Assembly: GCA_029261055.1 (NCBI GenBank)
Contig: JAJDCA010000037.1
Coordinates: forward strand, 82,818 to 146,817
Direction: 5' to 3'
Source: Candidatus Omnitrophota bacterium
GTDB lineage: Bacteria > Omnitrophota > Gorgyraeia > Zapsychrales > Zapsychraceae
DNA: 64,000 bases
Below the pieces are notes generated by a model. That model ran no database searches. It had not been told where the DNA came from and saw only the letters and a program-made list of their open reading frames with translations. Shown here piece after piece: positions 5,551-58,289 of this stretch. The position numbers and the translations under genes are program-made. The number at the start of each line of letters is the position of its first letter. Position 1 is the stretch's first letter.

Positions 5551-5580
5551 GTCTTACACCTTTCCTTTGATATATTTTAT

Positions 5581-6666: not shown

Positions 6667-6669
6667 TAT

Positions 6670-7167: not shown

Positions 7168-7177
7168 TAACCTCTCC

Positions 7178-25192: not shown

Positions 25193-25322
25193 GTAAGTTC
25201 TCCTTGTAAAAGGTTTTATGTGACTCGTTTATATTTTAGTGCTCACTAAAAACCATAATTTTGCCAATTTGACAATACATGATTTACTAGTTCTAAGGCT
25301 ATTATATAATACGTTCTTTTGA
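25193..25322 (-). promoter_or_regulatory. Intergenic region with candidate promoter elements upstream of the putative major tail gene
   Basis: 130 nt without coding. The minus strand carries TTGTCA ... TATTATATAAT and an 8-bp inverted repeat TTTAGTG/CACTAAA. Confidence 0.25.
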
Positions 25323-28695: not shown

Positions 28696-28770
28696 TTAAT
28701 CTCCAGAGTAAATTTATACAATAATATACGAATATTGTAATACGCTAACCTAGTACAGCTTTGACCCTAT

Positions 28771-28813
28771 ATCAAAAAATAAAAGTACACGAGTTAATTG
28801 CCCATGTACTTTT
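28771..28813 (-). terminator. Rho-independent terminator downstream of the major capsid gene (a hairpin with T-runs on both sides)
   Basis: 9-bp stem AAAAGTACA...TGTACTTTT with a 15-nt loop. It is flanked by ATTTTTT on the minus strand and TTTATTTTATTTT on the plus strand. Confidence 0.55.
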
Positions 28814-28844
28814 ATTTTATTTTGTCAATTATAATAATGACTTA

Positions 28845-29876
28845 TTATAGGGCACCCAATAGGGTTCTGCGACTATCTAGAACGGCAAGACCAAATTCTG
28901 CCCAACCATAGACTCCACCCTTCATTTCTCTGTGAAGATCATCGGCTGAGAACATTTGCATGTCTTCTCGTACTGGCATTACAAATGAATCCCTGTTACT
29001 TAAATCTAAAGCTACACAAAACTCTTCTTTGCTTGCTGGAACAGAAACACCAAGAGTACTAACAAGATAATCTTGATACTCTTGACCAACACCAAGCTCT
29101 TGAAGTTCATGGAATCTAGTTCCAAACATTCCCATAAATGGTGCAAAACCATCACTATCCATTAAAGACTGTAAAGTGGGATCAGTTACGATTTGTCCAC
29201 CAGAAGATCCGGTATCAAAGTTTCTAATGTCAGCAATTGCCTCTGGTGATAGATAAATATCAGTCACTTTAGAATTACGACCACCGGCAAGACGCTTAAT
29301 AGCTGTTTGTAGGTTGGTAGTTAGACGTTTTGAGTAAACACCGCTAGTAGCAGCGCTATCAACTACAACTGAATTAGAGGCTCCGGCAGCCAATAGTGCG
29401 TGCCATCCGTCATCGTTGATTTTTTGAGTAAATCCATTGGTGTATATCTCAATAGCACGAGCAATAACGTCCCAGCGAGCATCGCGAGCATAGTCAAGAC
29501 CCCATGAAATTGCGTTACCAATCTTGTAGGTAATAACATGCAATTCACCACTATCAATGTTACGGTTAGGAATCGCACCTTCTTTTGGCACCACAAATGC
29601 TTTTCTAGAATCACCTTCTGAATCACTTGGCGTGTAGATATCTAGTGGAAACTTCGCGTCAGTGCCAGCTTCAAGTTGGATAGGGTCAAAAATTCCTTCC
29701 AGTGTGTCTGGTTCTAATACGCCTTGACGCCATGCTTGTTTTAAAACTTGACAAAGCGCCTTCTGATGCTCCTTTGAAACCTCGTCATTTCCAGCGGTTG
29801 CTCGAAGAAGTTCACGAGCCTTTTGATCAATTTTGAATTCTTGACCATTGATTTCAACTTTACCTTTGTTAAACAT
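28845..29876 (-). CDS. Major capsid protein candidate (343 aa, HK97-like size)
   Basis: RBS GGAGGTG upstream. Position after the protease/scaffold-like gene, followed by a strong terminator. No motif-level proof. Confidence 0.5.
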   Translation of the reverse strand: MFNKGKVEINGQEFKIDQKARELLRATAGNDEVSKEHQKALCQVLKQAWRQGVLEPDTLEGIFDPIQLEAGTDAKFPLDIYTPSDSEGDSRKAFVVPKEGAIPNRNIDSGELHVITYKIGNAISWGLDYARDARWDVIARAIEIYTNGFTQKINDDGWHALLAAGASNSVVVDSAATSGVYSKRLTTNLQTAIKRLAGGRNSKVTDIYLSPEAIADIRNFDTGSSGGQIVTDPTLQSLMDSDGFAPFMGMFGTRFHELQELGVGQEYQDYLVSTLGVSVPASKEEFCVALDLSNRDSFVMPVREDMQMFSADDLHREMKGGVYGWAEFGLAVLDSRRTLLGAL

Positions 29877-29927
29877 TTTATCACACCTCCAATTTAGTGT
29901 GTTTATTTCTTCAATTTAAATACTTAA

Positions 29928-30404: not shown

Positions 30405-30431
30405 GTTGTTTCCTCCAGTATTGTAATAGAA

Positions 30432-33377: not shown

Positions 33378-33854
33378 CTATTTATTTCTATCTGTTAATT
33401 TATCAATCTTGCTCTCTACTATTTCTCTAACCATTTCTGTAGAGTGTCTCTGTTCTGATACTAACTTATCTATTAAATTTCTATTTTCTGCATGATCTGT
33501 TTGCTGTAATGTAACTAATTTTTCAACTGAATTTTTCTGTGATTCTACAGATACAGAAACAACTTGTGTAAGACCATCCAACGCTGCCGTAACATGATTA
33601 AGATGATTATCCAATGTTGTATCTCTACTTTGCACTAGTCCTACCATGTTTGTCATATTCTCCTTATGACCCTTAATCATATTTCTAATTAAAAAAAATA
33701 GAACACATGCGACAAATCCAGCCAATACAACTCCAAGACCATATTCTTGTGCAGCTTTACCCCAGCCGTCTATACCCCCTGCGTAACCAACAGAACTTGA
33801 CGCTGCTTCAGCAAGTAAAAAAACCACTAATCCTCCGATATGCTGGCATTGCAA
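33378..33854 (-). CDS. Small membrane protein (two predicted TM helices) within the head module
   Basis: Hydrophobic segments GGLVVFLLAEAASSSV and LGVVLAGFVACVLFFLI. Overlaps the portal gene end by 28 nt. Confidence 0.35.
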   Translation of the reverse strand: MQCQHIGGLVVFLLAEAASSSVGYAGGIDGWGKAAQEYGLGVVLAGFVACVLFFLIRNMIKGHKENMTNMVGLVQSRDTTLDNHLNHVTAALDGLTQVVSVSVESQKNSVEKLVTLQQTDHAENRNLIDKLVSEQRHSTEMVREIVESKIDKLTDRNK

Positions 33855-35920
33855 ATACTGAACGCCTTTTGCACAATTGCTCTCATGGCCTTTTTATTTG
33901 GGGCCTTGTCATGCTTTTTACGAAATTTAGCAACCTCTTCTTTAGTTACTGACTCTACACATCTGTCCAGCTTCTTGCCAGACTTTGACTTAAGTGCATT
34001 CTTTACTAAATCTTTGGTCCACCTATTTTCGCATACTAGTTGCGGCAACGCTTTGCCTATATTATCTATAATATTTATACGATCTGCCTCAGTTAAGTCT
34101 CTCAAGCTATCGTATTTGGCATTATCTGCTATCGTTGTTGCTATCATCTTGTATAGCTTATCAAAACCATTGTCTATCCTGTCTCTAGGTATAGGAGTTT
34201 TTTTAGCCGCTGTCTTTTGACCCTGTGGGCTATCTGGCTGAGTCTGCTGCTGTTGTTTTTTCTTTGTCCCTGGCGGTCGTCCACCCTTCTCACCTTCTCC
34301 GCCCTGTTGTGCTGGATCGTTACCATCTATGTCGTCATCATTAAGTAGTTGAGCTATATTTGATGTAAATTTACCGATTCTTAATAATGCATGATCTGAT
34401 TCTTGTTCTAAGACTTTTCTTTTAGCATCCTCTCTTCTGATTCTCTCTACTTCTATCCCTATATCTTCTCCAAACCTATCAAGAAGTGTTTCAAATGATA
34501 TTACATTGCGATCAAATAGCTCTATCATAAACCTTTTTTCCACTTCTTCGTCTGTGAGTGACATTTTCCCTATGCGCACAATTGGCGATTTTCTAAATCT
34601 CATGTTTCTTGAAACAATATTGACTTGCTCAACCCAAAACGACTCTAATATCTTTTGTCCAGTCTCAAGTCTCTCCATTAGCGTTTTTATAGCTAGAAAA
34701 CTATTGGAAAAGTTTCCACCCTCTCCGTTTATTAATGCTTCCGGTATTCCTAATCCTGCACGAATGTCTGCATCAACTTGCTTATACTTTTCCGCTGAAA
34801 AGAAATTTTCAACTGGTGGAAATACTGTTTCTATTGAAATTAGGTCGTCCCAGACTATGGTTTTGCTCTTGTGGGGATTCATTAACATTGATGTTAATTT
34901 TTGGTATTTCTTTTTAGATGGCAAGAATCCTTTTTCAGTAGATCCAAGTTTCACAATTGTTAAGGCATTTGTTACGCCTTCAGCAACAGATATATCCATA
35001 TTTCGAATAAGTTTTTTAAATTTAACATCAGGTATTACTCTCCAAAGCAACGGAGTAGCCCATGAGCGATATCCGTCTCTTTTGTAATATAGCATCTTTA
35101 GTCTATTTTTAGGAAGATTTATAAATCCAGTGCTTTTAAGTTTATCAAATGTATCAGTACCTATACCTATTTGCTTTTCAAAATTATCTATAGCCTTGTC
35201 TCTGTCTTCTCCAATTTGAGTAGACGTATTTACGCTCTTAAGCCCAAGATCTTCTGGACTGAATCTATATGACCACCCAACAGTGTCTAATAATTCGCTT
35301 CCTGTTCTAAACACTCTTAGCACGTCTAGCATTTCGTATCTAAAAGGAATTACATTTTTAACAGGTATTTCTGGATCTAGTATTCGTGAACTAACAAATT
35401 TTTTCTCTTCTGCTGATGACTTACGCATACGGTTTATTTCTTCTTCGTTAAGTTCACCGAAAAAGCTTAGTATGGGTACATTTCCGTCACGATATACACC
35501 CTTTAGTATTTGCTCCGACACTTCGTATGTTTTGGCAGTTTTCATCCATTTTTTAAAAAACTGTTTTATTTTTTCATCATTATGCTGAATTTCCAAATCT
35601 TCTAATGCAAAATCTACCATTATATCTATGATGTTGCCGATAATGCCTACATTTTCGTATGCTTCACGACATGAGGCTATCCTCTGATGAGTTTCTGCCT
35701 CATCATTTGTTCCATTTATCTGTGTGTTTCCATTAAATGATATTCTATTGTAGTCTAGATTAGTAAAAGCATTGGCCTTACTAAAAACACTGTCAACTGG
35801 CATACTAATAGATGCTCTCATATCATCTTTGGCGAGTATTCCGTCCCACGCCTTAGCTTTTTTGAATAGTGTTTGATTGGCCTTATTTAAAAATGGATTG
35901 TCTGAATCTTTATTTGGCAT
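33827..35920 (-). CDS. Portal protein candidate (697 aa)
   Basis: Large ORF immediately downstream of the large terminase, of the right size. The C-terminal Lys/Gln-rich extension is unusual. Confidence 0.5.
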   Translation of the reverse strand: MPNKDSDNPFLNKANQTLFKKAKAWDGILAKDDMRASISMPVDSVFSKANAFTNLDYNRISFNGNTQINGTNDEAETHQRIASCREAYENVGIIGNIIDIMVDFALEDLEIQHNDEKIKQFFKKWMKTAKTYEVSEQILKGVYRDGNVPILSFFGELNEEEINRMRKSSAEEKKFVSSRILDPEIPVKNVIPFRYEMLDVLRVFRTGSELLDTVGWSYRFSPEDLGLKSVNTSTQIGEDRDKAIDNFEKQIGIGTDTFDKLKSTGFINLPKNRLKMLYYKRDGYRSWATPLLWRVIPDVKFKKLIRNMDISVAEGVTNALTIVKLGSTEKGFLPSKKKYQKLTSMLMNPHKSKTIVWDDLISIETVFPPVENFFSAEKYKQVDADIRAGLGIPEALINGEGGNFSNSFLAIKTLMERLETGQKILESFWVEQVNIVSRNMRFRKSPIVRIGKMSLTDEEVEKRFMIELFDRNVISFETLLDRFGEDIGIEVERIRREDAKRKVLEQESDHALLRIGKFTSNIAQLLNDDDIDGNDPAQQGGEGEKGGRPPGTKKKQQQQTQPDSPQGQKTAAKKTPIPRDRIDNGFDKLYKMIATTIADNAKYDSLRDLTEADRINIIDNIGKALPQLVCENRWTKDLVKNALKSKSGKKLDRCVESVTKEEVAKFRKKHDKAPNKKAMRAIVQKAFSICNASISED

Positions 35921-36014
35921 ATTAAATTCTCCTGATAGATATTCATTATATTGTACGTTTGATGCCTATACATATGGGCCATGTGCCCATAACATATATA
36001 TTCATGGTCTTATT

Positions 36015-39000
36015 TTATGTGAATTCATCAGACCATCCACCAATTGAGTTGTCGTCCTCGTATCTCTCTCTCAGGATCGCGTCTTTGTCATAATTTATCT
36101 CATCTAATCTCATGGCCATATAGTTAGCTAATAGAAATGAGGAATATCTATCTTTGTGCTTTACACCCTCTTCTTTTCTCTCGTCAGGTGGCTTTAAATC
36201 GAATGACTTCTTGCCTGTTTTAGTGTAGACTATTGTGATAGACGACAATTCTTTCTTTAATTCCGATACTTCAAACAGTATATCCTCTGCCTCGTCATCT
36301 AGGGCGCTAGTACTTGTGGTTACTGGAAACATGGTAAGCCTATCTTCAATATTTTTTTGAAGCAGGGTGTTTGACTCATCCAGCCACGCTGAGCCGAAAT
36401 TCTGTAAATTTAGTATTCGTAGCCCTTCTTTTGCCTCTTCGCTGTCGTCATCAAAATGATAAAACTTAGGTTCGTCTGGTTTACGAATTTCAAGACCATC
36501 ATCAGTTTTTTCCATATTTAACATTTCTTCTACAGCGTGGCCACCACCACCCGCATCCATGTTTATTCCAACAATGTTGAATCTTCTCCACAACTCTCTC
36601 ATGTGTGCTGCACATTCTGAATATTTTCTTTTTTGAGCAGTCCATTGATACACTAACTTGTGCGGTGTTCCGACCTCTATTATGGTGACAGCAAACCTAT
36701 CTAGCATTTTAGCTGGATCTACACCCATTACATACTGTCTCTTTGGCTTACCTCGCTTTAACACGGAAAAACCATTGGGCGGAGATGCTGTTGCTTCGCG
36801 TATCTGCTTGGCTTTATAGAATCCTGTACTGTCGTCTCCAAATAGCGTGTTGTACTCCATGTCGAACAATTGTTTTGGCATCTGTGACCTACTGGATTCA
36901 ATCACATCTTTTTCCATCATGCCATCTGGTATTGCCTCCCAGGGATAGCGCACGATACAGTAGTTATTGCAGTCAACCTCGTAGCCTTCGCGCTTTTCAC
37001 TTTCGTCAAATACATCACCGTGTTCGTCCACCGCACCCTTTACATTGTGTTTTATTATCTTCTGATAATGTGCGTAAACATGATGAAACGTCTCTCCTGT
37101 ATATCCTGCGGTTCCGGCCAATATAATTTTATTACCAGAATTGATATCTGACATAGCTAAATCTTCTGGCTCATTACCAATTGTACGAGCTTTTACCTTC
37201 TCCCAGGGGTCTAATTGTGTTGCAGCGAATCCACGCACTACTACATCAAATATTTCAATTGGAATTGAGTTGAACTCATCTGCCAGTATCACATGTCCAC
37301 GCTCTCCTCTAATTCTAGTATTGTGACTAAAGAATCCGTTTGCACAATACTCATGTCCATTTGGTACATGAATATCATATGTATGACCTTGACCATCGTG
37401 CTCTATGTCTGAAACTTTATCATAGAATATATTTGTATCATATAGATTTTCAATATCTTTAACTGTAGAATGATTAGTACCACCATGAACCCTTAAGAAT
37501 GTATTCGCCATCTTCCATGAAATATTTGATTTGTTTTTTAAATATCCATACGAACAATCTCTACTATTGTAGGAGCCTCTTGGTGCTCTAAACTCCTTGG
37601 AAAAACTTTTCACTTTGTCAATCATGTCTGGAAGATAATCGGAATGATTAACAAATCTTTTCTTATTTGCAATAATATTGTCTAGCCCATCTACTTTGCG
37701 AGATAAACGAAACCCTATTTTTTCATGAAATATTTTAAGATTGGCACCTCTTATTGTCAATTGATAACAAGTGTTCCATTTTTCACTACGATCACGTTTA
37801 TATACTGTTGCTACTATGCCGTAATGAAGCAGTATATATTGCAGTTGTTGAATTAGAATTTTGCTGGTATTATTAAACTCTACACATGTAGATCCTTCTC
37901 CAACATCAACAACACCTCCGTCTGAGTCCATTAGTCCTTTTATAAATTCTGTAACAACATGTCTTTCTGCACACATTATACTTTCTGGTATTCGTTTATC
38001 TTTTGTGCTAACATGTTTGTAAGATACTCCAAACTTAGACATAAAATTACTTTTGACAGACTTTCCATATGCATTGTAGTGACACCCATCTGTCGCAGGA
38101 ACAAAATTCCCAATTACACAAACAGCTTCAGCCAACTCCTGATCTTTTGTGGCAAATCCAATATTGTATTTGTCTTTAATACTGCCATCACCTATTATTA
38201 GTCCTAATGCATATGATTCATCTGGTGTAATGCTATTTGCCCCCTTGTGCCAGCGAATAGATCTGTCTATCAATACATGATCTGATTCAGTTATTTCATC
38301 AAATCTTGACCATATGATGTCTCCATCTCTAACAATTTTAACTTTGTGATTTTTTGTGCCACTAATTTCAAATCCACGAGAAGTACGAATTTTGATAATA
38401 TCTGTATAGCGATTATAATAAGACTCATTCGTTGACCTCATTTCCCCATTGCCCCAGACAGTTCTATTCCTATGAACTATGTTTTCGTTTTGGTCAACGT
38501 CTTCTGGTTGATCGTCTGATATGGTTCCAAATCTATCTCCATAAGTCACCATAGTGTCTGGACTTACACAGCCATCTCCCATTGGCAATGCTGTGACACT
38601 TGATCCACATATTTCTAGCTTCCAGCTATCCTGATTATGTACCGGCTCTCTCTCCATCATTTGACTCAACAATGGAGATTTTTTAATCATTTTTTCCATC
38701 TCATTGAAGACCAGCTTGGATTGTCTGAAGCTAGCTGAGACTAATATTATCCTTGAATATGGAAACATGATAGCATGATACAATGAATATGTAGCTAAGC
38801 TAAATGTCTTTCCGGCACCCCTTGACAATAATAGCAATGGAAACTTGTGTCTCAGCATTGCTATTATCATTGACATTTGGAATGGGAATAATTTTACACC
38901 TAGTAAATACTTTATACCAAAGGCAGGAGAATAGAATGGATTGCAGAGCTTGTAAAATTCCGTAAGCTCATCTTTTTCTTTCTGGTCCTCTCTAACATCT

Positions 39001-39101
39001 AATAATGGATTTATTAGTAATCTTTTATCTGGAATATTGTTCATCCACTCATAATCTGGATGAAATACTTTTGCAATTCTAGATATCTGTTTTGAGTCCA
39101 T
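36015..39101 (-). CDS. terL: Terminase large subunit interrupted by an intein (1028-aa precursor; about 611-aa mature TerL)
   Basis: Walker A LLLSRGAGKTF lies before the intein. Walker B-like HVILADEF follows immediately after the intein. The C-terminal half is nuclease-domain sized. RBS GAGGA upstream. Confidence 0.85.
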   Translation of the reverse strand: MDSKQISRIAKVFHPDYEWMNNIPDKRLLINPLLDVREDQKEKDELTEFYKLCNPFYSPAFGIKYLLGVKLFPFQMSMIIAMLRHKFPLLLLSRGAGKTFSLATYSLYHAIMFPYSRIILVSASFRQSKLVFNEMEKMIKKSPLLSQMMEREPVHNQDSWKLEICGSSVTALPMGDGCVSPDTMVTYGDRFGTISDDQPEDVDQNENIVHRNRTVWGNGEMRSTNESYYNRYTDIIKIRTSRGFEISGTKNHKVKIVRDGDIIWSRFDEITESDHVLIDRSIRWHKGANSITPDESYALGLIIGDGSIKDKYNIGFATKDQELAEAVCVIGNFVPATDGCHYNAYGKSVKSNFMSKFGVSYKHVSTKDKRIPESIMCAERHVVTEFIKGLMDSDGGVVDVGEGSTCVEFNNTSKILIQQLQYILLHYGIVATVYKRDRSEKWNTCYQLTIRGANLKIFHEKIGFRLSRKVDGLDNIIANKKRFVNHSDYLPDMIDKVKSFSKEFRAPRGSYNSRDCSYGYLKNKSNISWKMANTFLRVHGGTNHSTVKDIENLYDTNIFYDKVSDIEHDGQGHTYDIHVPNGHEYCANGFFSHNTRIRGERGHVILADEFNSIPIEIFDVVVRGFAATQLDPWEKVKARTIGNEPEDLAMSDINSGNKIILAGTAGYTGETFHHVYAHYQKIIKHNVKGAVDEHGDVFDESEKREGYEVDCNNYCIVRYPWEAIPDGMMEKDVIESSRSQMPKQLFDMEYNTLFGDDSTGFYKAKQIREATASPPNGFSVLKRGKPKRQYVMGVDPAKMLDRFAVTIIEVGTPHKLVYQWTAQKRKYSECAAHMRELWRRFNIVGINMDAGGGGHAVEEMLNMEKTDDGLEIRKPDEPKFYHFDDDSEEAKEGLRILNLQNFGSAWLDESNTLLQKNIEDRLTMFPVTTSTSALDDEAEDILFEVSELKKELSSITIVYTKTGKKSFDLKPPDERKEEGVKHKDRYSSFLLANYMAMRLDEINYDKDAILRERYEDDNSIGGWSDEFT
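37320..38570 (-). mobile_element. Intein (417 aa) with a LAGLIDADG homing endonuclease domain, inserted in the TerL ATPase domain
   Basis: Block A CVSPDTMV follows extein ...ALPMGDG. Block B GTKNHKV. Two LAGLIDADG motifs (LGLIIGDGS and FIKGLMDSDGG). Blocks F/G HTYDIHVPNGHEYCANGFFSHN are followed by extein Thr (TRIRGERGHVILADEF). Coordinates are derived from residue positions 178-594 and are accurate to ±2 nt. Confidence 0.8.
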
Positions 39102-39558: not shown

Positions 39559-39584
39559 GCGCCTTCCTGTTTTTGTTGATATTT

Positions 39585-40148
39585 TTATTTACACAAGCCT
39601 TTTGCATCTAGAAGTGCTTTGGCCAAACCCTCAACATCTTGCTTACTGAACCAACTGGTATCTTTTTGGCGCTGTTGCACTTTTGTCGACTTGTTTTTTG
39701 GTTCTTGGTTCAAAAATATTTGTGCCTGATCTTCAATATACGTATCAATACTCTTTTTAATTTCAGACAATTGTAGTGTAGTTTTATCGATAATGTCATT
39801 AAGATCACTGATTTTTTTACTATCATGTTTAATATCATGCTTAGTACAAAAGGACAGGGTGAGCATTGCTTTGGCCTGCTTTATCCTGGCCTCAATAGCA
39901 CGTTTAACAGTGTTTCCCATCATGTCTGGATTATACCAAGGTTCATGCACTATTTCTTTTTCTGGACCAAACATAAGCCTGCCCTCCAAGGCATCTATCT
40001 TTGTTTGTAGATCAACCTCTTGATTATGTATAGCGCTCCACTCATTACCGGATGCTCTACTGTCTAAGTTTAGGCGCTCTTGAGTTTTTGCAGAAAGCTG
40101 CTGCTTAAGTTGTTCGATGTTATCCACTACCATCTCCTGTAAAATCAT
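39585..40148 (-). CDS. Coiled-coil protein (187 aa) in the packaging module
   Basis: Heptad-like Gln/Glu/Lys-rich sequence. No motif recognised. Confidence 0.4.
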   Translation of the reverse strand: MILQEMVVDNIEQLKQQLSAKTQERLNLDSRASGNEWSAIHNQEVDLQTKIDALEGRLMFGPEKEIVHEPWYNPDMMGNTVKRAIEARIKQAKAMLTLSFCTKHDIKHDSKKISDLNDIIDKTTLQLSEIKKSIDTYIEDQAQIFLNQEPKNKSTKVQQRQKDTSWFSKQDVEGLAKALLDAKGLCK

Positions 40149-40971
40149 TAGATAGACCGCTTGGCTCTACTCCAGACTTGAACTCTAAATTTGTATCGTA
40201 CTTGTCGTTTTTGCCAGAATGTATACGTTTTCCTATTTTTTCATTGTAATCTTTTCTGGTCATCCAGCGGAACATAGCAGCCTCGTTCCCGACCTCGCTA
40301 CGAATAGTTGGATTCTGTAAGTCTTTTATTAGTGTTGTAAAATTTACAGCTTGGTCAGAGCTGTTCTTGAGTCTCTGCTCACGAGTTACATTTAGTGACT
40401 TTTCACATTCTTTAATAACGCTATTGCAGTCACCAATCTCCTTACTCTTGTTTGCTATCCACTTTCGCTGTTCCTCTTTCTCCTGGTCTGTTAATTTTTT
40501 ATTCAGTTCTATTGCATTGAAGCTATCTAAAGCACGTTTCTCTTCGGCCATAAACCGCAATAGTCTAACTTCAGCCAATGTTTTTCTATGTAGCGTATCT
40601 TTTTCAGCTGATGTCATAGTCTCGATAGTTGGGTCCATCATAAAATCCATGTAGCGCTCTTGGTAAAACTCTATTTCATGTTTCTGCAACACAGCTTTAG
40701 TCTGTTTAAACTGTGCTGTTCTTTTTAACTCTGCCAACAAAAATGACTCTTTATCGCCTTGGCTTAGTCCAGAAATGTAAGATCCACGATACTGACCCTC
40801 TATGTCTTTCTTTGGTTCTGTAGCCTTGGTCAACTTCATTCGTTCTCGTGTTTTTGTTACAGATGCACGAGTTCTATCAAGCCTATTTGCTATCTGCTGA
40901 TCTGTTAAAAGCAGATAATTAGCAGAAAGAAAATTTTTATCGTCTTGTGACCACTTGCCTCTTTTTGCCAT
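40120..40971 (-). CDS. Putative terminase small subunit / HTH DNA-binding protein (start taken at Met11)
   Basis: N-terminal HTH-like segment WSQDDKNFLSANYLLLTDQQIANRLDRTRASVTKTRERM. Charged, oligomerisation-like remainder. Lies two genes upstream of terL. Confidence 0.35.
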   Translation of the reverse strand: MAKRGKWSQDDKNFLSANYLLLTDQQIANRLDRTRASVTKTRERMKLTKATEPKKDIEGQYRGSYISGLSQGDKESFLLAELKRTAQFKQTKAVLQKHEIEFYQERYMDFMMDPTIETMTSAEKDTLHRKTLAEVRLLRFMAEEKRALDSFNAIELNKKLTDQEKEEQRKWIANKSKEIGDCNSVIKECEKSLNVTREQRLKNSSDQAVNFTTLIKDLQNPTIRSEVGNEAAMFRWMTRKDYNEKIGKRIHSGKNDKYDTNLEFKSGVEPSGLSNDFTGDGSG

Positions 40972-40973
40972 GT

Positions 40974-41537
40974 TTATCCTTTGACTAGGCGACCTGTACA
41001 TTCATCGCATTGGGTGGACCCTTGAACCTTTGTGTCAAACTGACGATGACAGACATCGCAAACGCACTTGAATAATGAAATTCTACGATTAGTTTGTGTT
41101 ACACTTGCTTTACCTGGCCTCACTGCTTTTCCATTTGCATCTACTTCCGGTGGCGGAATAAGCTCACTCTCAAGCATCGGTGGCTGATTATCAGAATCAT
41201 TGTTAGTTTCTGTGGGTTTGGGCTCTACGGATACCGTGGGCTCTGCCTTTTGTAATGTGGACACATGTGTTTCTTGCGGCTTTTTTACAACTAGTGGTTT
41301 TGCCTCATTACTTTCACCCTCTATTGGAGATATAGGCAATGAAACTTCTCCGCCATTTAAACTCTTGTAGAATATGTAAAAACCATCACAATTAGGACAA
41401 CTTACATATGATGCATCTCTATTCCCTTCCATTAATGGCGCAAGATTAGACATAAAACTATCATCTATCCCTTTTGCCATTTTTAAATCTGCTGACCCTC
41501 CCAGCCATCCACAGCTTCCACACATTGAAATGATCAT
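40974..41537 (-). CDS. Zn-ribbon protein (187 aa)
   Basis: Cys clusters CGSCGW, CPNCDG and CVCDVCHRQFDTKVQGSTQCDECTG. Confidence 0.4.
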   Translation of the reverse strand: MIISMCGSCGWLGGSADLKMAKGIDDSFMSNLAPLMEGNRDASYVSCPNCDGFYIFYKSLNGGEVSLPISPIEGESNEAKPLVVKKPQETHVSTLQKAEPTVSVEPKPTETNNDSDNQPPMLESELIPPPEVDANGKAVRPGKASVTQTNRRISLFKCVCDVCHRQFDTKVQGSTQCDECTGRLVKG

Positions 41538-41549
41538 CAGTACCTCTCC

Positions 41550-42260
41550 TTAGTATATATTGTAGCCTTGTAGTGCATCTCTTAATGCCTTTTTTAGTAT
41601 TTTTTGCTCTTCTTCTTGCAAGAGTTCAATATCGTAATTTACATCTTTTAACTTATTGAATAGTGGATGGAAGGCGGACGGAAGATTTAAGCTGATATGC
41701 TCTAATATATCTAAAGTACTTTCATGTGATCCGCTATTTTCATCTTTTAGTATAGTAGAATCTAGTGATGCTGCATTATTTGCACTCATTTTAGCCTTTA
41801 AGAACTTTTCATGAGCTTCATATTTCTCACACTTCATTTTATCCTTATATTTCATACAGTCATGATTGCCAGCCTTAGATGCCACCTTATCCCACAATGG
41901 ACAACGAAAACAGGGCTTATTATGCTTGTATACTAGTGCTCTTTTTATATCTCTAATTCTATTTTCTGCTACGACAGAGAAAAAAGTACGCAGCCTTACC
42001 CCTCGCTCTGGTTTAAACTTATCAATTGATAGCCAGAGCTTCATTCTAATCTCTTGTGCTATGTCTTCCATTGATAGGTATACTATTTTCCAGTGCTTTG
42101 CAGCCTTACTCGTTGCAACACTTTCTATTATTTCCTTTATTTCTTTCTCTGTTAATTCTGCATCTTTAGGTGTCTTCTGTTTCTTCTTCTGAGTCTTCAA
42201 TTGTGTTTTCTTCGATGATTTTTCTTTTTTCTTCTTCACTTTCCGGTGCCTCTCCGCCAA
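41550..42260 (-). CDS. Phage-encoded sigma-70-family factor (region 2 homolog) with a poly-Lys N-terminus and a Cys cluster
   Basis: DIAQEIRMKLWLSIDKFKPERGVRLRTFFSVVAENRIRDIKRA aligns with RpoD region 2.1-2.4 ([40 protein letters not shown]). N-terminus RHRKVKKKKEKSSKKTQLKTQKKKQK. Also contains CFRCPLWDK...CMKYKDKMKCEKYEAH. Confidence 0.6.
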   Translation of the reverse strand: MAERHRKVKKKKEKSSKKTQLKTQKKKQKTPKDAELTEKEIKEIIESVATSKAAKHWKIVYLSMEDIAQEIRMKLWLSIDKFKPERGVRLRTFFSVVAENRIRDIKRALVYKHNKPCFRCPLWDKVASKAGNHDCMKYKDKMKCEKYEAHEKFLKAKMSANNAASLDSTILKDENSGSHESTLDILEHISLNLPSAFHPLFNKLKDVNYDIELLQEEEQKILKKALRDALQGYNIY

Positions 42261-42292
42261 ACTTTTTTACCGACTTAGATCTGGCGAGAACC

Positions 42293-42931
42293 TCAGACTT
42301 TGCGCGTACTTTGACAACTTTTACTTTTTTCTTGCTCATGAACATCTCCTTTTACTGTAATGCTATTTTTTTCACAATATTTATCTACTCCCTTTGTACT
42401 GTTTGTAAATCCAATCATATAGCGAGCATTTTCTATTGTCGTATTTGCTAATTCTAGAAATTCTATATCTCCGAATAGTAGGCAAATGTCTCTAGCCTTT
42501 GAATTATTTAAAATTCTATTTATATGTATAGCGCTCAAATCCTCTTCTGTTGCATATGATTTACTTCTGTGTATTTTATTATCTAATAAATCTGGCCCTA
42601 TACTTAATACAAAGTGTATTTTGGACGTTTCATTACAATACTCTGATGTTATATTATAATTATACCTACAATATAAATTATTGTCAGAAGTAATTTCTTC
42701 GGCAATAGACAGCAGTTGACTTATTTCTTCCATATTGCATCTAACAAACAGTATTCCGTTTTTTGTTTTTAAACGACTCAATGTATTTAATATTGTTTTT
42801 TTCATATCGTAAATATCGTTGCCTGAAACTGTATAGAATGCTAATCTAATGGAATTTGGCTTAGTGTATTTTTTAATATCGTGCCAAGATTTGTTATGCT
42901 CTGCGGCACTATAGACCACATTTAATTCCAT
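42293..42931 (-). CDS. Hypothetical protein (212 aa) between the sigma factor and dut genes
   Basis: Alpha/beta-like sequence. No motif recognised. Confidence 0.4.
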   Translation of the reverse strand: MELNVVYSAAEHNKSWHDIKKYTKPNSIRLAFYTVSGNDIYDMKKTILNTLSRLKTKNGILFVRCNMEEISQLLSIAEEITSDNNLYCRYNYNITSEYCNETSKIHFVLSIGPDLLDNKIHRSKSYATEEDLSAIHINRILNNSKARDICLLFGDIEFLELANTTIENARYMIGFTNSTKGVDKYCEKNSITVKGDVHEQEKSKSCQSTRKV

Positions 42932-43408: not shown

Positions 43409-45364
43409 CTATTGGATTTCACAGGCTCCACCCTGACAACTGATTTCCTTTGATCCTGTAGTATTGTCATCTATTTCAAATTTAGAGAGTTGACTATAAT
43501 CTATTTTTGGTAATTGTTTTTTCATTATGTTGTATTTTTTTTCATTTATAGATTCAAAAGGGGGCTGTTCGTAGTGTCCAGAATCAAACGGTAAAAACGA
43601 AACGCCGGTAATATATTTCCAGTTTTTATACACCCAGTTACCAACCTCCAGCCACTCGTCTTCTTTAACAAATATTGTGGCGCTAGCATTATGTTCACAC
43701 CAATGCTCCTGAATCTTTTTATAGTGTTCAAGCTGCTCAATAGCCGTCATGTCGTCTCTTAGTACAGACCCTTTGGGGGCAGCTACAGGGAACGATACAA
43801 CCCATGTATTAACCTTATCTTCCGTCCATCTCTTTCCCTTTTCATATATTATACACTTTTCTATATCACCCTTTTGTGCCATTTTCCAATCCTTCAATCG
43901 TTCTCCGTTTTCTGGTGACATCGGAAAGTTTTGATCTTTTAGCATTTGACACAGGGGATCTATAGAGGAGATTCTATAGCGCCTAATATAGAATTTAGAG
44001 AAACGACCATGTATTCCAGACGACGAGTTTACTAATTGTGAAACTGTTCCAGATGGTTTTACTGTGGTGATAGCTGTAGAGAAATTAATCCCAAGAACCT
44101 TTGATGCCTTTTTGGCGATCTTAATAGCTTTCTTTTTCATTGCTTTTAGTGCTATTGGGGTCAACATATCAATATTGTCCATCTGTCCAGTTAACGATAT
44201 TCCCAATAGCCTCTCTTCATTACAGTTTCTCTTCCACTTTTGAGATAGGTAAGAAAAATTTGTATAAGTTGATTGAAGCGCCCCTAACCATGCTGCTGTT
44301 TCTATTTTATCTAAGATATCGTCTAGGTCATCATTTGGACGAATAACAACTTCGGTCAAGTTACACATTTGGCATGATCTTAAAATTATCTCAGCACACG
44401 GATTACATCCTGCTAAAAGATTTGTTTTTCGTCTATCCGGTGATCTCTTTATTGCACCCTCTAGATTAAAAATCCCTCTTTCTCCAGTTCCGCTTTTTGC
44501 TAAAGCAGACCACTCTTCCATAAAACTAATAGCCCCAGGCTTATCCCTATATATTGTTGATATATTCGCCATCGCTCTATGTAATGGAAATGGCCAAGTC
44601 TTGGCCCCTCTAATTTCTTTGTCTGATAAGTCTGATAGAGCCAATTGAGAGCTTCTTCTAACACCCCCTACAACAACTACTTCAGCTATTTTATTTAAAA
44701 TATCCAAGCACTCAATAGATTTTAGCTGTCTGCCCTGCGCCTCAATAAAAATCATTCTAATAAAGTCGTGAAGAGTTATTAGTGGTTGTTTGCCAGAAGA
44801 CCTTCCTCCAAATGTTTTTAATCTTGCTCCCTTTGGTCTAAGTAATCCATAATCAAAGTCCATATCTTTTCCAGCATATAGTGCCTTCATAAGATATTTA
44901 ACAGAATCAGCCCATCCCTCTTTTGAATCTGGAACTATGAAGGTTCCTGCACCTTCTCCAAGCATCTTGCTGATGGTTGGTAATTTATCTACATATTTAT
45001 TTTCTACAGAAAATCCATAACCAGTTCCACACATTAGAATGTACAAACATTCAGCAAACGCCTCAATGCAGTCAATATTTTGATAGGAGCAATTATATAG
45101 TGCTGCATGAACTTTATTTCCAGCGTCTCCAGCAGCCCATAATGCCCTCATGCTGCCCATAACTGAAAAATTTAACATATAGTTTCTAGCTTTACGAAAC
45201 ACCTTTTGTGGAACACTATCACCATTGCCCTGTTCTAAAAACGTAATATATCTATCTACTGTCTCATCCCATGTTTCTCTGCGATTTTCCTCTTCTAGCC
45301 AACGCGAATAAGTCCTGGTGTACACAAATTCAGCCGCTTCATTTGCAAACTCTACTCTACTCAT
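43409..45364 (-). CDS. nrdJ: Ribonucleotide reductase, class II (adenosylcobalamin-dependent, NrdJ-like)
   Basis: Active-site loop GCNPCAEIIL (class II SNPCGEI). C-terminal redox pair CQGGACEIQ. N-terminal ETWDETVDRY. Start chosen at the Met preceded by AGGAGA (track start 45466 would overlap the upstream gene by about 90 nt). Confidence 0.7.
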   Translation of the reverse strand: MSRVEFANEAAEFVYTRTYSRWLEEENRRETWDETVDRYITFLEQGNGDSVPQKVFRKARNYMLNFSVMGSMRALWAAGDAGNKVHAALYNCSYQNIDCIEAFAECLYILMCGTGYGFSVENKYVDKLPTISKMLGEGAGTFIVPDSKEGWADSVKYLMKALYAGKDMDFDYGLLRPKGARLKTFGGRSSGKQPLITLHDFIRMIFIEAQGRQLKSIECLDILNKIAEVVVVGGVRRSSQLALSDLSDKEIRGAKTWPFPLHRAMANISTIYRDKPGAISFMEEWSALAKSGTGERGIFNLEGAIKRSPDRRKTNLLAGCNPCAEIILRSCQMCNLTEVVIRPNDDLDDILDKIETAAWLGALQSTYTNFSYLSQKWKRNCNEERLLGISLTGQMDNIDMLTPIALKAMKKKAIKIAKKASKVLGINFSTAITTVKPSGTVSQLVNSSSGIHGRFSKFYIRRYRISSIDPLCQMLKDQNFPMSPENGERLKDWKMAQKGDIEKCIIYEKGKRWTEDKVNTWVVSFPVAAPKGSVLRDDMTAIEQLEHYKKIQEHWCEHNASATIFVKEDEWLEVGNWVYKNWKYITGVSFLPFDSGHYEQPPFESINEKKYNIMKKQLPKIDYSQLSKFEIDDNTTGSKEISCQGGACEIQ

Positions 45365-45374
45365 GCTTCTCCTA

Positions 45375-46550
45375 TTAGTGCAAATTATGCTCATTGGCTT
45401 TGCGGGTGTAGAATTTACCACCGACCTCAGCAAAATCCCTAACATCTGTATAGTTGAATACAACATCTTTGGTTTCTGTGTCTACATGAATAATAATAAA
45501 CCCATTTGACCATTTTTCACCATCGCAATATGATGCATCCCTATAATGCATACCTCCCAACTGATGCCATTCATATGATCTGCGATTTACGTTATAATCA
45601 TGCCAAACTAAATGATGATGATGATGCCCATTAATTCCTGGCATTCCAGCAATATTACGACCCTGCGGTTCATGATGAACCAAAAATGCGTCATCGTATA
45701 TTTTGAAACTACGAGCAACTTGATTATTTTCGTCACCCTTATTCCATGCAGTAAGGTCAGCTTTGCCAATATAATTTATCTCAAATTTATCTAACCCCAA
45801 CATTTCTCTAACGCCCATATTATGAACTTCAGAGAGTATTGACATTGTTGCTGCATCAGCATTACACATATGCTTAACTAATCTAAGCTCGTGATTGCCT
45901 TCAATCATGTCGATCTGTGCATCACCAGCGGCTTTGCGAACTGGTTTTAGTATCTTTTCGTGAACAAATTTAATTCTGCCAGCGGCATCCCATGTGCGAG
46001 GATCTACTGGAAATCTACCAAACTCTGGCAGGTCAAATATGTCTCCGGCCAGTATCACTCCTGCTAATTGTCCAGCCTTTTTAATACGTGATATTGTATC
46101 AACAAACACTCGCAGGCAAAAGGGATCGCACTCTTTATCGTGGAAGTCTGATGCTGCAACGTATGTTTTTATTCTTCCTTTGGCTGGACGACTAAACTTG
46201 TCCGCCCAAGTTGCTCTCTCAGCATTCATTTTCCTATATATATCAGCATCTTTATGCTTGGCAATATCATTGGCTAGTTTTTTCTGCCCCCTAGTTGGGG
46301 TTATGTTTGCCGCCCTTTGAAATGCCGGAAATGTTCCAAAGTACTTCTCCCAGTGAGAGTCTTTTATCTGTGTTCTGGTTCTAAAGTATCCTCTGCTTAG
46401 CGTGGTACATCCATCATCTTGACGAAACTGCCAAAGTCCCTTTATCAATGTTATGAAATCCTGCTCTGTTAGTTTACTGGCTATTTTGTCTGGTATTTTC
46501 TTTCCAGATTTAATAGCATCATTGAAATATTCTGTTTTTGTTTTTGACAA
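45375..46550 (-). CDS. Calcineurin-like metallophosphoesterase with an N-terminal extension of about 120 aa
   Basis: Motifs ASDFHD (DxH), AGDIFD (GDxxD), EGNHE (GNHE), and histidine-rich GINGHHHHHL. Confidence 0.65.
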   Translation of the reverse strand: MSKTKTEYFNDAIKSGKKIPDKIASKLTEQDFITLIKGLWQFRQDDGCTTLSRGYFRTRTQIKDSHWEKYFGTFPAFQRAANITPTRGQKKLANDIAKHKDADIYRKMNAERATWADKFSRPAKGRIKTYVAASDFHDKECDPFCLRVFVDTISRIKKAGQLAGVILAGDIFDLPEFGRFPVDPRTWDAAGRIKFVHEKILKPVRKAAGDAQIDMIEGNHELRLVKHMCNADAATMSILSEVHNMGVREMLGLDKFEINYIGKADLTAWNKGDENNQVARSFKIYDDAFLVHHEPQGRNIAGMPGINGHHHHHLVWHDYNVNRRSYEWHQLGGMHYRDASYCDGEKWSNGFIIIHVDTETKDVVFNYTDVRDFAEVGGKFYTRKANEHNLH

Positions 46551-47656: not shown

Positions 47657-47716
47657 TATAACCTACCTTGGTATTTAATTTTAATGGCTGTTTGGAGTAT
47701 AATATACGACAATATA

Positions 47717-48658: not shown

Positions 48659-48769
48659 TTTTCTCCAATCTACAATGAATTTCGGTCTACTTCCAATTAT
48701 ATTATAACTATAATTATGTTTCTTGCTATATATTTCTATTCACAAAGCGTATTATAAGTAGATACAACA

Positions 48770-50668
48770 ATGAATATTAATGGAGGGTGGATAGTGACAA
48801 ATTCAATTAATTTTATTCCAGGTTCAGATGGTGAAAATATCGGTGATGGATCTGGCATATTTCAAGATGTAAACAATAATACTCTTCGTTTTAAGACAAT
48901 TGTTCCAGTAAGTGGGTTAGAGATAATAGACACTGGCACAGAGTTGGAATTTACAATACTATCTACTGTTGGGGAAGCTGGACCGTCTGGTGCTACAGGT
49001 CCACAAGGCCCAAGTGGCGTTGCGGGTCCAAGTGGAGCGACTGGTTTGACTGGTGCTACAGGTCCACAAGGCCCAAGTGGCGTTGCGGGTCCAAGTGGAG
49101 CGACTGGTCCTAGCGGCTCTCAAGGAGTCCAGGGAGAAATTGGTCCATCTGGTACAGCACATACTTTTTCAAACATTGGAGCTGGGGAAGGTGTATTTTC
49201 TAGCATTGTATCAGATGATGTTCAATTTAAAAGCATAGTTGGTAATTCGGGTATTGATGTATCTTCTGACAGTGATGAAATATTTATTGACTTTGACATA
49301 ACCGAAGTTACTGAGCTTGGGCCGACTGTATCTGGACTATACTACCGTAAAGACGAAGATGTTATTCCTGATATTGACGAGACATACACTATAGGTAATC
49401 AAACAACTAAATTCGTTACTGTTCATGCATCAACTGGCGTTTTCACTGGTGCCAATAATGAAGTTGGTAAAGTAGCAGTTGGTGATTTCGGCGGCGGACT
49501 AGAGTGTGCAATAATCGAAAGAGGTCTTCCTGGTGCATTTCCGGCTTTAGTTATGCGTGGTGGTAGAGCCGCTATTATGGAGACATCTAATCTGGGAACA
49601 ATGGTTTCTGGATTCTATATGGGTCCAACTCAAAATATAATTATGGGAGATATAGAGGATTATACATCCAAAACAGGTGGTCAATTATATAGTAGTGAGC
49701 TTAACCACTTTGACAAGAAAATAACCTCTGTCCTACATACTAAATTGGTTGACAGTTCTAGCAATAGAGTTGCTCATTATGTTTTTAATACAAATTCCGT
49801 TAATTCTAAAAATAGTAATCCTAGTATTGCTTTAGAGGCTGTGTCTCAAACAAATGTCACGAAGGCTGTTTCTAATTATATTACAGCAATAAAGGCTAGG
49901 GCCGTAGCACTAGATTCTAGTTCTTCAGTTGTTATACCAAACGGTCTTTACGCTGGTCTTGATTGTCAAGTTATTCATAGTGGTGTTGGGAGAGTAAGCA
50001 CAGCTAAAGCTGCTTATTTTGGATTAAGTGCATCATCTACCGGATCATTCGGTAACGCCTATGTTGTTCATATTGCAGCTCCATCTGGATCATTCTCTGG
50101 TGCCAACAAATCTCTGTGGTGTGAGGGCGAGGCATGTTTTACAAATAATGTAGAAATAGTTAATGACTTAAATATCGGCTCTGATATAATTGTTGTAGGA
50201 ACAGTAGAAGGCGATATTTTTCAAGTCAATGATTCCTTGACAGTAGAATCTATATCAACTTTTAATGATGATATTACCGCTACTGCTGATGCCTTTTTCG
50301 ACAATGATGCTAGTGTTAGCGGATGCTTAGAGACCAAAATAAGGCGCGATGCATCACGTAGGGAATCATTTGTTTTTGTCGACAATATTGCATTTGATCG
50401 CAATTTAATCTATGGAGATATGGCTGCTGCTGGCTCCATATTGACAGTGACAGATCCAGGTAAAAATGGACAAGAGACGAAAGTTGTATGGAAACAAAAT
50501 AACGCCGGAACAGGGTTCGTTACGTTTTCTTATTCTGGTGGTATTAAGTGGAGAGGTGGAGCAGCGCCAACGCTAACAGCGACATCTGGTGTCAGAGATA
50601 TATTTACATTTTTGTACGACTCGACTGATGATGTGCTCTATGGGCATGCTGATCAGGGCTATGCTTAA
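48770..50668 (+). CDS. Collagen-like (G-X-Y repeat) fibre protein with a large C-terminal globular domain, 632 aa
   Basis: About 48 uninterrupted G-X-Y triplets ([25 protein letters not shown]...). It is the only plus-strand gene within about 50 kb of minus-strand genes. A GTG at 48794 preceded by GGAGGG is an alternative start. Confidence 0.8.
48989..49107 (+). repeat. Perfect 56-nt direct repeat with 63-nt period (2 copies) inside the collagen-like region
   Basis: ggtgctacaggtccacaaggcccaagtggcgttgcgggtccaagtggagcgactgg occurs at 48989-49044 and again at 49052-49107. It encodes the 21-aa unit [18 protein letters not shown](L/P)(T/S)G. Confidence 0.8.
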
Positions 50669-51272: not shown

Positions 51273-51322
51273 AACTCCTTATAGATTAATTACACATAAT
51301 ATAATACGAATTTAGTGTTCTA

Positions 51323-51925: not shown

Positions 51926-52018
51926 TTACTTTTATTCTCCGGCATTGGTTTGGCATCATTGAATATTTATTTTACGATTTTAGACATGTTCAAATATTAT
52001 CTATATGATGTAATAAAG

Positions 52019-58032: not shown

Positions 58033-58204
58033 GCCAGATTTGAGATGATCATGCTCACCGAGCCATTTGCCTTTCCTTGCGGAAACTTCAAGAATCATAG
58101 CTAGGCTATTCTCGCTCAACTTAAAGTCTTTTTGTTCGTACTGGACTATTGTTACGTTGTCTTAACCATATAGGGATTCGGGCAACGCAACTCAATATTT
58201 AAAA

Positions 58205-58278
58205 TACACTCATTAGGATTCGAACCTAAAACCTACAGGGTAGAAACCTGTTGCTCTATCCATTTGAGCTATGAGTGC
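58205..58278 (-). tRNA. tRNA-Arg (anticodon UCU), 74 nt
   Basis: Manual cloverleaf: acceptor GCACTCA/TGAGTGT(A), D-arm GCTC-AAATGGATA-GAGC, anticodon arm ACAGG-TTTCTAC-CCTGT, variable AGGTT, T-arm TTAGG-TTCGAAT-CCTAA. Lies 12 nt downstream of the preceding CDS. Confidence 0.8.
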
Positions 58279-58289
58279 ATAGCTTATTC

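Follow-up and report, generated by a model that had tools for sequence, protein, structure and literature searches.

Phage-encoded sigma factors are the main route by which large phages re-programme host RNA polymerase. To our knowledge, only a few types have been studied mechanistically, namely T4 gp55, SPO1 gp28/gp34 and phiEco32 gp36. Here we analyse a sigma-like gene in a 64,000-nucleotide stretch of contig JAJDCA010000037.1 (positions 82,818 to 146,817 of the forward strand; assembly GCA_029261055.1, Candidatus Omnitrophota bacterium), which we refer to as the window. A preliminary description of this DNA, made from the letters alone, had pointed to the gene as that of a possible late-gene sigma factor. 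The corrected gene lies on the minus strand at 41550..42200, and its product is, as far as its sequence tells, a new factor of the sigma-70 family, encoded by an uncultured tailed phage, with a conserved predicted zinc module and a reduced C-terminal domain. A motif with a CGTA core, found upstream of the portal gene and of other genes in the window, is a candidate for its promoter element.

Promoters of extracytoplasmic function (ECF) sigmas combine an AAC-type -35 box, a spacer of about 16-17 nt and a CGT-type -10 element. The T4 late promoter, TATAAATA, differs from the CGTA motif, and phiEco32 gp36 contains a canonical region 4 and uses promoters of two elements. The window protein is, like gp36, a phage-encoded ECF-like sigma; unlike gp36, members of its family have no tblastn match in GenBank phage records. 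The small phage protein gp79 of phiEco32 is reported to displace the host sigma and to stabilise gp36 (PMC12276001).

The ECF sigmas SigW, CnrH and RpoE come closest: they give the best Protein Data Bank (PDB) matches, in region 2, are small two-part proteins with a linker and share the region 2.3/2.4 pattern. CGTA, the core of the phage motif, is the selective -10 element of the ECF factor sigma-W of B. subtilis, and ECF operons are typically autoregulated (PMC5758882). The window protein differs from these factors in scoring below the cut-off of the TIGR02937 model, in carrying four conserved cysteines (the Cys4 module) and an extra helix after region 2.4, in having no detectable sigma-4 helix-turn-helix (HTH) and in being phage-encoded; its candidate motif shows no AAC-type -35 box, and no membrane anti-sigma lies nearby. 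The T4 gp55/gp33/gp45 system is similar in its phage factor of the sigma-2-only type, its single -10-like element and its small acidic accessory proteins (PMC7892883), but gp55 has no demonstrable homology to the window sigma and no Cys4 module, and the window sigma keeps a C-terminal helical domain of its own.

In CorE-type ECF238 sigmas, conserved metal-binding cysteines sit in a C-terminal extension of about 20 aa, sometimes in the linker, and form a regulatory switch (PMC7826278). Metal binding is likewise predicted for the window sigma, but there the cysteines are predicted to be packed on sigma-2 and region 4 appears degenerate. The ECF reclassification did not capture phage sigmas (PMC7826278). 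The best viral structural neighbours are sigmas of Bacillus siphophages (Slash/Staley/Stills), a group whose portal is about 20% related to that of the window, and of cyanophages; these differ in that they match at E 7e-3 or worse, have no sequence-level match and are mostly about 225-250 aa long.

The sigma-2 domain and the Cys4 module

The Pfam family Sigma70_r2 (PF04542) matched the protein with a score of 39.9 bits, where the gathering cut-off is 24 (E=3.6e-10), over aa 60-107 in the numbering of the uncorrected 236-codon open reading frame (ORF), and there was no other Pfam match. The check with Sigma70_r2/r4 models that the preliminary description had proposed thus bore out a phage sigma-70-family identity, with r2 significant and r4 without a match. 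PHROGs gave weak matches to 'RNA polymerase sigma factor' (phrog_1740 at 1.4e-5 and phrog_351 at 2.9e-3), and Sigma70_r2 scored above threshold in 133 of 140 family members. We consider membership of the sigma family very highly probable.

The sigma-2 domain spans aa 18-89 of the corrected 216-aa protein (41934..42149, minus strand), with three helices, a DxxQE core-binding motif and an ECF-like region 2.3/2.4 pattern, F..(F/L)...A.NR..D..R, in which R87 ends the region 2.4 part. The region 2.2 motif, of which D..Q is a part, makes contact with the beta' clamp helices. In hhalign, which gave a probability of 90% across region 2 against E. coli RpoE, the DIAQE of the sigma protein aligns with the DVVQE of RpoE, and D46 and Q49 are each at least 90% conserved among the 140 members. 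When the family profile was compared with the PDB, the best matches were ECF sigmas (CnrH at 4.6e-6, SigW at 2e-5 and SigR at 3.2e-5), always in region 2 alone. The clear similarity to regions 2.1-2.4 of RpoD reported earlier therefore holds for the sigma-2 domain but is not specific to RpoD, since ECF sigmas are closer. The window protein nevertheless failed the ECF model TIGR02937 of NCBIfam (35.1 bits, with the cut-off at 42.9; the range among other members was 16-36 bits). Homology to T4 gp55 was not demonstrable by hhalign (probability 33%), and the 'late sigma transcription factor' PHROG 234 was matched by 1 of the 140 members. The protein thus has a sigma-70-family sigma-2 domain, falls short of the ECF model and is placed in neither the ECF nor the gp55 family; it probably works as a hybrid of the two types.

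Correct numbering required a revised gene start. The minus-strand ORF at 41550..42260 has 236 codons and opens with TTG. A protein search returned 12 homologues of 201-219 aa, all of which align from about residue 21 of this ORF; among them is the database gene call P0001, itself 216 aa long and 100% identical to the sigma protein over 216 aa. Because the homologues and P0001 begin there, and because a small gene occupies the region of residues 1-20, we take the TTG at position 42200 as the start of a 216-aa product, whose stop codon is at 41550-41552. The 20 codons upstream (42201..42260, minus strand) are a spurious N-terminal extension that has no counterpart in any homologue and lies inside the small gene in another frame. 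The 'poly-lysine N-terminus' noted earlier is thus largely an artefact of ORF extension, and the lysines left in the corrected N terminus (MKTQKKKQKTPKD) are not conserved.

To define the family, a profile of 13 sequences was searched against 1.84 billion representative proteins. With a limit of E<=1e-3 it matched 683 clusters (at 50% identity); 162 of these remained at E<=1e-10, and 19 at E<=1e-30. The matched proteins were almost all about 200 aa long and aligned end to end. Mean column identity in the 140-member alignment is 18%, and the positions conserved in at least 90% of its sequences are D46, Q49, R87, P96, C97, C100, C115 and C124. A tblastn search with five members, including the window sigma, against 50,697 GenBank phage records gave no match, nor did megablast of the 7 kb around the gene against GenBank phages; the literature searched contained no description of such a sigma. 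The family has so far been seen solely in what appear to be uncultured phages. No second sigma paralogue was detected in the window or the fetched loci when the family hidden Markov model was run on six-frame ORFs.

Immediately after region 2.4 comes the Cys4 module, P96-C97-x2-C100 ... C115-x8-C124 (41829..41915, minus strand), whose cysteines C97, C100, C115 and C124 are C117, C120, C135 and C144 in the 236-aa numbering. The 'CxxC...C...C cluster' of the preliminary description proved to be invariant in 13 close homologues, with each cysteine at least 90% conserved among the 140 aligned sequences. Most of 161 proteins show the pattern, which, going by these alignments, is the hallmark of the family. 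One member matches DUF2116, a 'probable treble clef', at E=1e-3. The module also has a feature of zinc-type domains, four conserved ligands in two knuckles (CxxC and C-x8-C), with predicted local distance difference test (pLDDT) scores above 90, and it presumably holds zinc in a site predicted to be packed on sigma-2.

The AlphaFold2 model, built with the 140-sequence alignment, has a mean pLDDT of 89.2 and a predicted template modelling score (pTM) of 0.67. It places the three helices of the sigma-2 domain at aa 18-35, 44-61 and 70-89 and the cysteine module at aa 90-124 (pLDDT 91-97), with beta-bridges to the loop at aa 39-42. A helix at aa 125-141 and an acidic, low-confidence linker at aa 142-155 follow (together 41736..41828, minus strand; pLDDT blocks 71 and 61), and three C-terminal helices are predicted at aa 156-172, 175-186 and 196-210. 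Foldseek matched the full-length model to sigma chains in holoenzymes with a probability of 0.97-0.99 and E of at least 0.018. Against predicted viral structures (BFVD) it returned phage sigma factors alone, all weakly (probability 0.93-0.99, best E 7e-3).

Could the cysteines instead form a regulatory metal or redox sensor, as in CorE-type ECF238, that gates the sigma by the physiological state of the host? Cysteine-rich segments do regulate some ECF sigmas (PMC7826278), and four family members match the HIPIP iron-sulfur model weakly. However, the CorE-type segment is a flexible C-terminal extension, whereas the cluster described here lies between sigma-2 and the linker, and the model places it with very high confidence in the folded core, with beta-bridges to sigma-2. 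The four cysteines are also near-invariant across a very diverse family, as expected of a structural site, and we regard a sensor as improbable.

The C-terminal three-helix domain (aa 156-216; 41553..41735, minus strand) is possibly a remnant of region 4 that lacks the full HTH. Its family consensus, I...LP...R.DF..L..G......R........EIL, starts with an LPxxxR that resembles the region 4.1/4.2 junction of ECF sigmas, and TIGR02937 aligns several members in one stretch that runs from region 2 to profile positions 112-126 of 165, where region 4 starts. None of the 140 members matched Sigma70_r4 or r4_2 (PF04545, PF08281), even at E<=1. A search of the PDB with the C-terminal profile found no sigma-4 and returned spurious RNase HII matches only, and hhalign of the C terminus against RpoE aligned nine columns (LPSAFHP with LPEDLRM) at a non-significant probability of 0.35%. 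After the conserved Gly, most members have about 20 residues that form one helix, a segment too short to make a two-helix HTH for -35 reading likely. The C terminus may therefore hold on to the beta-flap tip; recognition of a -35 hexamer by it is unlikely. The earlier statement that an obvious region 4 is missing is accurate for a canonical region 4, which went undetected in 140 members, but overlooks the conserved LPxxxR three-helix domain.

With sigma-2 as the sole confidently identified domain and region 4 undetectable, the protein might be a sigma mimic that occupies the beta' clamp helices and shuts off host transcription without promoter specificity. This seems very improbable to us, because the DNA-reading and melting positions of region 2.3/2.4 are conserved in addition to the core-binding region 2.2, the locus adjoins packaging genes rather than early host-takeover genes, and a conserved promoter-like motif exists.

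The CGTA motif

In a four-genome alignment of the spacer between terminase and portal, one conserved block, ACGTAyAwTrTArTG, stands out amid diverged DNA. A CGTA followed by an AT-rich element also precedes the portal gene in four more genomes (L006, L013, L007 and L012), making eight in total, whose sigmas are 32-62% identical. In the relatives alone, CGTATA, CGTATAT and CGTATATT were among the most enriched upstream k-mers, beside the Shine-Dalgarno sequence. Alignment of 21 sites gave the consensus CGTA-t-w-A-T-A-w-A. Across these sites every position from -35 to -1 upstream of the motif carries less than 0.5 bit, which suggests that the motif has no -35 box; an AAC-type box 16-17 nt upstream of CGTA was likewise not found. 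In L007 and L012 no more than 12-13 nt separate CGTA from the Shine-Dalgarno sequence, so that the transcript would include the latter only if CGTA were in the -10 region. The preliminary description had anticipated a novel promoter architecture, and a CGTA-tWATAwA element before structural genes, with no information upstream of it, fits its -35-less prediction.

As an independent test, we built a matrix from the sites of 12 relatives only and scanned both strands of the window. Five of the ten top matches were intergenic and oriented towards a gene, compared with 3.2% of strand positions (binomial p=7e-6); a sixth, at 51308, lies between two genes and was excluded just by a small ORF that is probably spurious. 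Five intergenic matches reached at least 11.5 bits, against a mean of 0.26 and a maximum of 2 in 1000 composition-matched shuffles. The reverse test, with a window-only matrix applied to the relatives, gave a similar picture. The signal consists in the location of the matches and not their number, as CGTATATTAT with two mismatches is not enriched genome-wide (86 against 87).

The strongest match to the relatives-only matrix, from which all ranks below are taken, was CGTATTATATAA (25302..25313, minus strand; 17.6 bits), upstream of a gene for a 414-aa structural protein. The second, CGTACAATATAA (35946..35957, minus strand; 17.5-17.6 bits), lies upstream of the portal gene. CGTATTATATTA (51297..51308, minus strand; rank 3, 14.6 bits) falls between small minus-strand genes, and CGTATTATAAGT (48748..48759, plus strand; rank 4, 14.2 bits) precedes a collagen-like tail-fibre gene. 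Two tandem sites, CGTATTACAATA and CGTATATTATTG, at 28744 and 28730 (28719..28744, minus strand; 28730 is rank 5), stand after an apparent terminator and before a gene for a 140-aa protein. CGTAAAATAAAT (51965..51976, minus strand; rank 8) is a variant that also occurs before CHRD genes in L001 and L020. Finally, CGTATATTATAC (47697..47708, minus strand), an exact CGTATATTAT, lies upstream of an inosine monophosphate dehydrogenase (IMPDH)-like gene that heads the array with the class II ribonucleotide reductase (RNR), dUTPase and sigma genes; L019 has an orthologous site before its own IMPDH-like gene.

Two further observations concern single sites. A hairpin with a T-run (aaaagtaca...tgtacttttatttttt; 28696-28844, minus strand) follows the probable major capsid gene at 28845..29876 and is directly followed by the two tandem motifs, an arrangement suggestive of a terminator followed by a promoter, set between the head genes and the genes downstream; a simple terminator scan did not have this hairpin among its results. 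A weak match (34070-34081 of the window, minus strand; 7.4 bits with the relatives-only matrix) lies within the 3' part of the portal gene, where the window-only matrix also gave matches in four relatives (L001 17369, L019 16164, L006 17561 and L013 17124); the genes after the portal may have an internal promoter there.

Other candidate elements fared less well. TACAATA, picked by eye, occurred 28 times against 17.8 expected, mostly in coding sequence, and was unconvincing; CTAGTGAGT, also picked by eye, was rejected (16 against 12.9 expected). Promoters of the sigma-70 type were not enriched in the structural half (64 found, 63 expected) and were mildly enriched in 42-62 kb (95 against 76). 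One 11/12 sigma-70-like match, at 42659-42687 in the gene for a 212-aa protein upstream of sigma, was dismissed as an internal promoter, since relatives do not conserve its -35 box and its TATAAT is accounted for by conserved Tyr-Asn codons.

The window protein likely acts as an alternative sigma for the middle and late genes of the phage. We assign the CGTA motif to it from their co-occurrence and by analogy with ECF sigmas, and put the chance that it reads this motif at about even. The reading that we favour, by a slight balance of probability, is that it brings host RNA polymerase, possibly with the help of the small partner protein described below, to ECF-like CGTA promoters that work independently of a -35 box. 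The earlier comparison with the late-gene sigma T4 gp55 stands in so far as this is a sigma-2 factor with a -35-less motif, and fails on homology to gp55 and on a strictly late role.

Several points weigh against the favoured reading. The window covers 64 kb of a source contig of about 155 kb, so a phage polymerase or a second sigma could be encoded elsewhere. The region-4-like nature of the C terminus is based on a short motif and on topology only, and the sites that gave the no-35 result had been picked with CGTA as the anchor. With the relatives-only matrix, the site at 47708 is a weak one (6.1 bits, rank 57). The motif also precedes the nucleotide-metabolism operon that holds sigma, and its class is then not purely 'late'. 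Of the four late-gene gaps in which the preliminary description had suggested looking for a motif, 25193-25322 contains it, but the structural-gene gaps 29877-29927, 30405-30431 and 39559-39584 do not. Finally, the motif can be read as CG followed by TAnnAT, a canonical -10 hexamer that a host sigma could use.

In another explanation, the protein is a genuine sigma that recognises a different motif, and CGTA-TAnnAT would serve either as a strong -10 element for the housekeeping sigma of the host or as the binding site of some other phage regulator. The motif has T, A and T at the invariant positions of canonical -10 hexamers, it is absent from several late-gene gaps, and it would drive the operon of sigma itself, which would need some sigma-independent expression first. 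However, neither a -35 box nor a TGn extended -10 supports use by the host sigma, and sigma-70-type promoters show no excess in the structural region. CG is invariant at the selected sites, and CGTA k-mers, which match the ECF -10 type, are independently enriched in relatives; moreover, the motif co-occurs with the sigma family across genomes down to 32% sigma identity. We therefore judge this explanation unlikely.

The overlapping small gene and the gene order

A conserved small gene (42166..42339, minus strand; 57 aa) with an AAAGGAG ribosome-binding site overlaps the sigma start by 35 nt. Its product, MSKKKVKVVKVRAKSEVLARSKSVKKFGGEAPESEEEKRKIIEENTIEDSEEETEDT, has a basic N terminus and an acidic C terminus and is clearly homologous to a 58-aa product at the equivalent position of a related 168-kb contig. 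In each of 12 loci, among them the distant L021 and the contigs of the distant members P0041 and P0107, a homologue of the small gene overlaps the start of sigma. The best-conserved part of the small protein, the C-terminal IIEENxIDE, is coded by the nucleotides that form the Shine-Dalgarno sequence and start codon of sigma, and its conservation may for that reason be partly nucleotide-level; the N-terminal core, V.AKSE..AKP..VKEF, is independently conserved. Neither Pfam nor PHROG yielded a match for the small protein. It is likely a partner of sigma, which makes the 'partner protein' of the preliminary description plausible, and by analogy this co-translated acidic protein is a candidate for a co-factor like T4 gp33 or phiEco32 gp79, or for an anti-sigma. 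Neither it nor the Zn-ribbon protein on the other side of sigma matched anti-sigma families.

These observations raise the possibility of a two-component factor on the T4 gp55/gp33 plan. The sigma would then supply -10 recognition only and be inactive or weak alone, while the small acidic protein, or the Zn-ribbon protein encoded downstream, would supply the beta-flap contact or another activating contact. The overlap with the sigma start in all 12 loci, distant members included, the absence of a canonical region 4 from sigma and the acidic C terminus of the small protein, similar to the acidic patch of gp33 that contacts RNA polymerase (PMC7892883), all favour this plan. However, sigma has its own conserved C-terminal LPxxxR domain, which may make a separate flap binder unnecessary, and the conservation of IIEENxIDE may owe something to the overlapping Shine-Dalgarno sequence and start codon. 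The small protein belongs to no recognised family, and no gp33, gp45 or sliding-clamp homologue was recognised in the scanned parts of the window. On balance, we consider a two-component factor possible but doubtful.

All genes from 556 to about 48658 are on the minus strand. Upstream of sigma lie ThyX, the IMPDH-like dehydrogenase, a metallophosphoesterase, the class II RNR, dUTPase, the 212-aa protein and the small gene. On the downstream side come a Cys-rich protein of 187 aa, a protein of 293 aa with an HTH-like N terminus, another of 187 aa, an ERCC4 nuclease and the terminase large subunit (TerL), and beyond these the portal, a CHRD-domain protein, the probable capsid protein, a tape measure of 2045 aa and the tail genes. 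The position upstream of packaging and structural genes given in the preliminary description is thus correct, sigma standing between RNR/dUTPase and the ERCC4 nuclease, terminase, portal and tape measure. Its place at the 'head of the late operon' is not: the gene is internal to a tightly packed co-directional array and has no promoter-like gap directly upstream. Where loci were long enough to judge (their sigmas are 32-62% identical to the window sigma), the order dUTPase, a protein of about 190 aa, small gene, sigma, Zn-ribbon protein, HTH protein of about 280 aa, ERCC4, TerL was kept. Scans of the neighbouring genes and early-region ORFs with PHROG and Pfam found nothing transcription-related.

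The Cys-rich Zn-ribbon-like protein (40974..41537, minus strand; 187 aa, CGxCGW...CPxC) directly follows sigma in 10 of 12 loci and has no Pfam or PHROG family. The 293-aa protein with an HTH-like N terminus (LTDQQIANRLDRTRASVTKTRERM; 40120..41001, minus strand) is conserved between sigma and ERCC4/TerL in all longer loci. The N-terminal pattern of these proteins of about 280 aa is LTDxxIAxxLxRxxxSVxxxRxxM, again with no Pfam or PHROG family; from its position only, the 293-aa protein is possibly the small terminase subunit. On the other side of sigma, the gene at 42293-42931 (minus strand) encodes a conserved protein of 180-212 aa (MELNVxY...KKT..N...R), to which no family could be assigned and which always lies between dUTPase and the small gene.

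The large terminase gene (36015-39101, minus strand) encodes 1028 aa, compared with 610-611 aa in L019 and L020. The extra segment of about 400 aa is in mid-protein and matches endonuclease-type PHROGs, and the L001 orthologue has Pfam Intein_splicing and LAGLIDADG_3 domains, which together point to an intein within TerL that carries a homing endonuclease. In NCBI, the related contig L001 bears the label 'Candidatus Pacearchaeota archaeon', which probably reflects an error of binning. The class II RNR (43409-45466 of the window) has 650-685 aa in the window, L019 and L020, but is longer in L001 (956 aa, 5761-8631), L006 (1286 aa, 4734-8594) and L013 (1654 aa, 3366-8330), which suggests one or more inteins there. 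Because RNRs of relatives begin MSKVEF..., the window RNR ORF is probably over-extended at its 5' end.

The portal (33827-35920, minus strand) has its nearest cultured relatives in the Bacillus siphophages Staley/Slash/Stills and Bacillus phage G, at about 20% identity, and a value this low places the phage lineage very distant from anything cultured. A CHRD-domain protein of 477 aa (31923-33356, minus strand; 70.7 bits in Pfam) is encoded among the head genes and occupies the same place in L001, L019 and L020. The collagen-like tail-fibre gene (48770-50668, plus strand), divergent from thyX, is the sole large plus-strand gene of its block. A tRNA-Arg gene (anticodon TCT; 58204-58279, minus strand) was found in the early small-gene region by ARAGORN and Rfam (68.6 bits).

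A proposed mechanism and its reach

In the favoured reading, in which the window protein redirects host RNA polymerase to CGTA promoters, sigma-2 would bind the beta' clamp helices of the host core through region 2.2, and would recognise and melt the CGTA-type -10 element. The Cys4 module would stabilise and extend sigma-2 at the point where sigma-3 or the ECF linker begins, and the acidic linker and three-helix domain would reach the beta flap without contacting a -35 element. The factor would thus replace the host sigma and direct the host core to phage middle and late promoters that consist of a single CGTA-t-w-A-T-A-w-A element. Sigma itself would be transcribed together with the nucleotide-metabolism genes, again from a promoter of this kind, with positive feedback after an initial read-through, and would then switch on the portal, head and tail units. 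As a CGTA motif precedes the sigma operon, positive autoregulation of the kind found in ECF sigmas is likely.

More tentatively, the window sigma may be the first example of a distinct and widespread class of phage initiation factors, in which sigma-2, the Cys4 module, an acidic linker and a three-helix region-4 remnant, always co-translated with a small acidic partner, would serve -35-independent CGTA promoters throughout a deep lineage of uncultured large phages. In such a class, the zinc module might contact RNA polymerase or DNA just upstream of the -10 element, take over the role of sigma-3/sigma-4 and be loosely analogous to the TFB/TFIIB zinc ribbon.

The family joins an ECF-like sigma-2, a conserved predicted zinc module and an apparently degenerate region 4 in at least 162 clusters, with no representative detected in the GenBank phage records searched. 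If the favoured reading is true, the motif would be a practical annotation marker for middle and late transcription units in many uncultured phages, and the protein and its motif would be a compact orthogonal sigma/promoter pair for synthetic biology. These phages would also have arrived at a second, independent solution to -35-independent promoter recognition.

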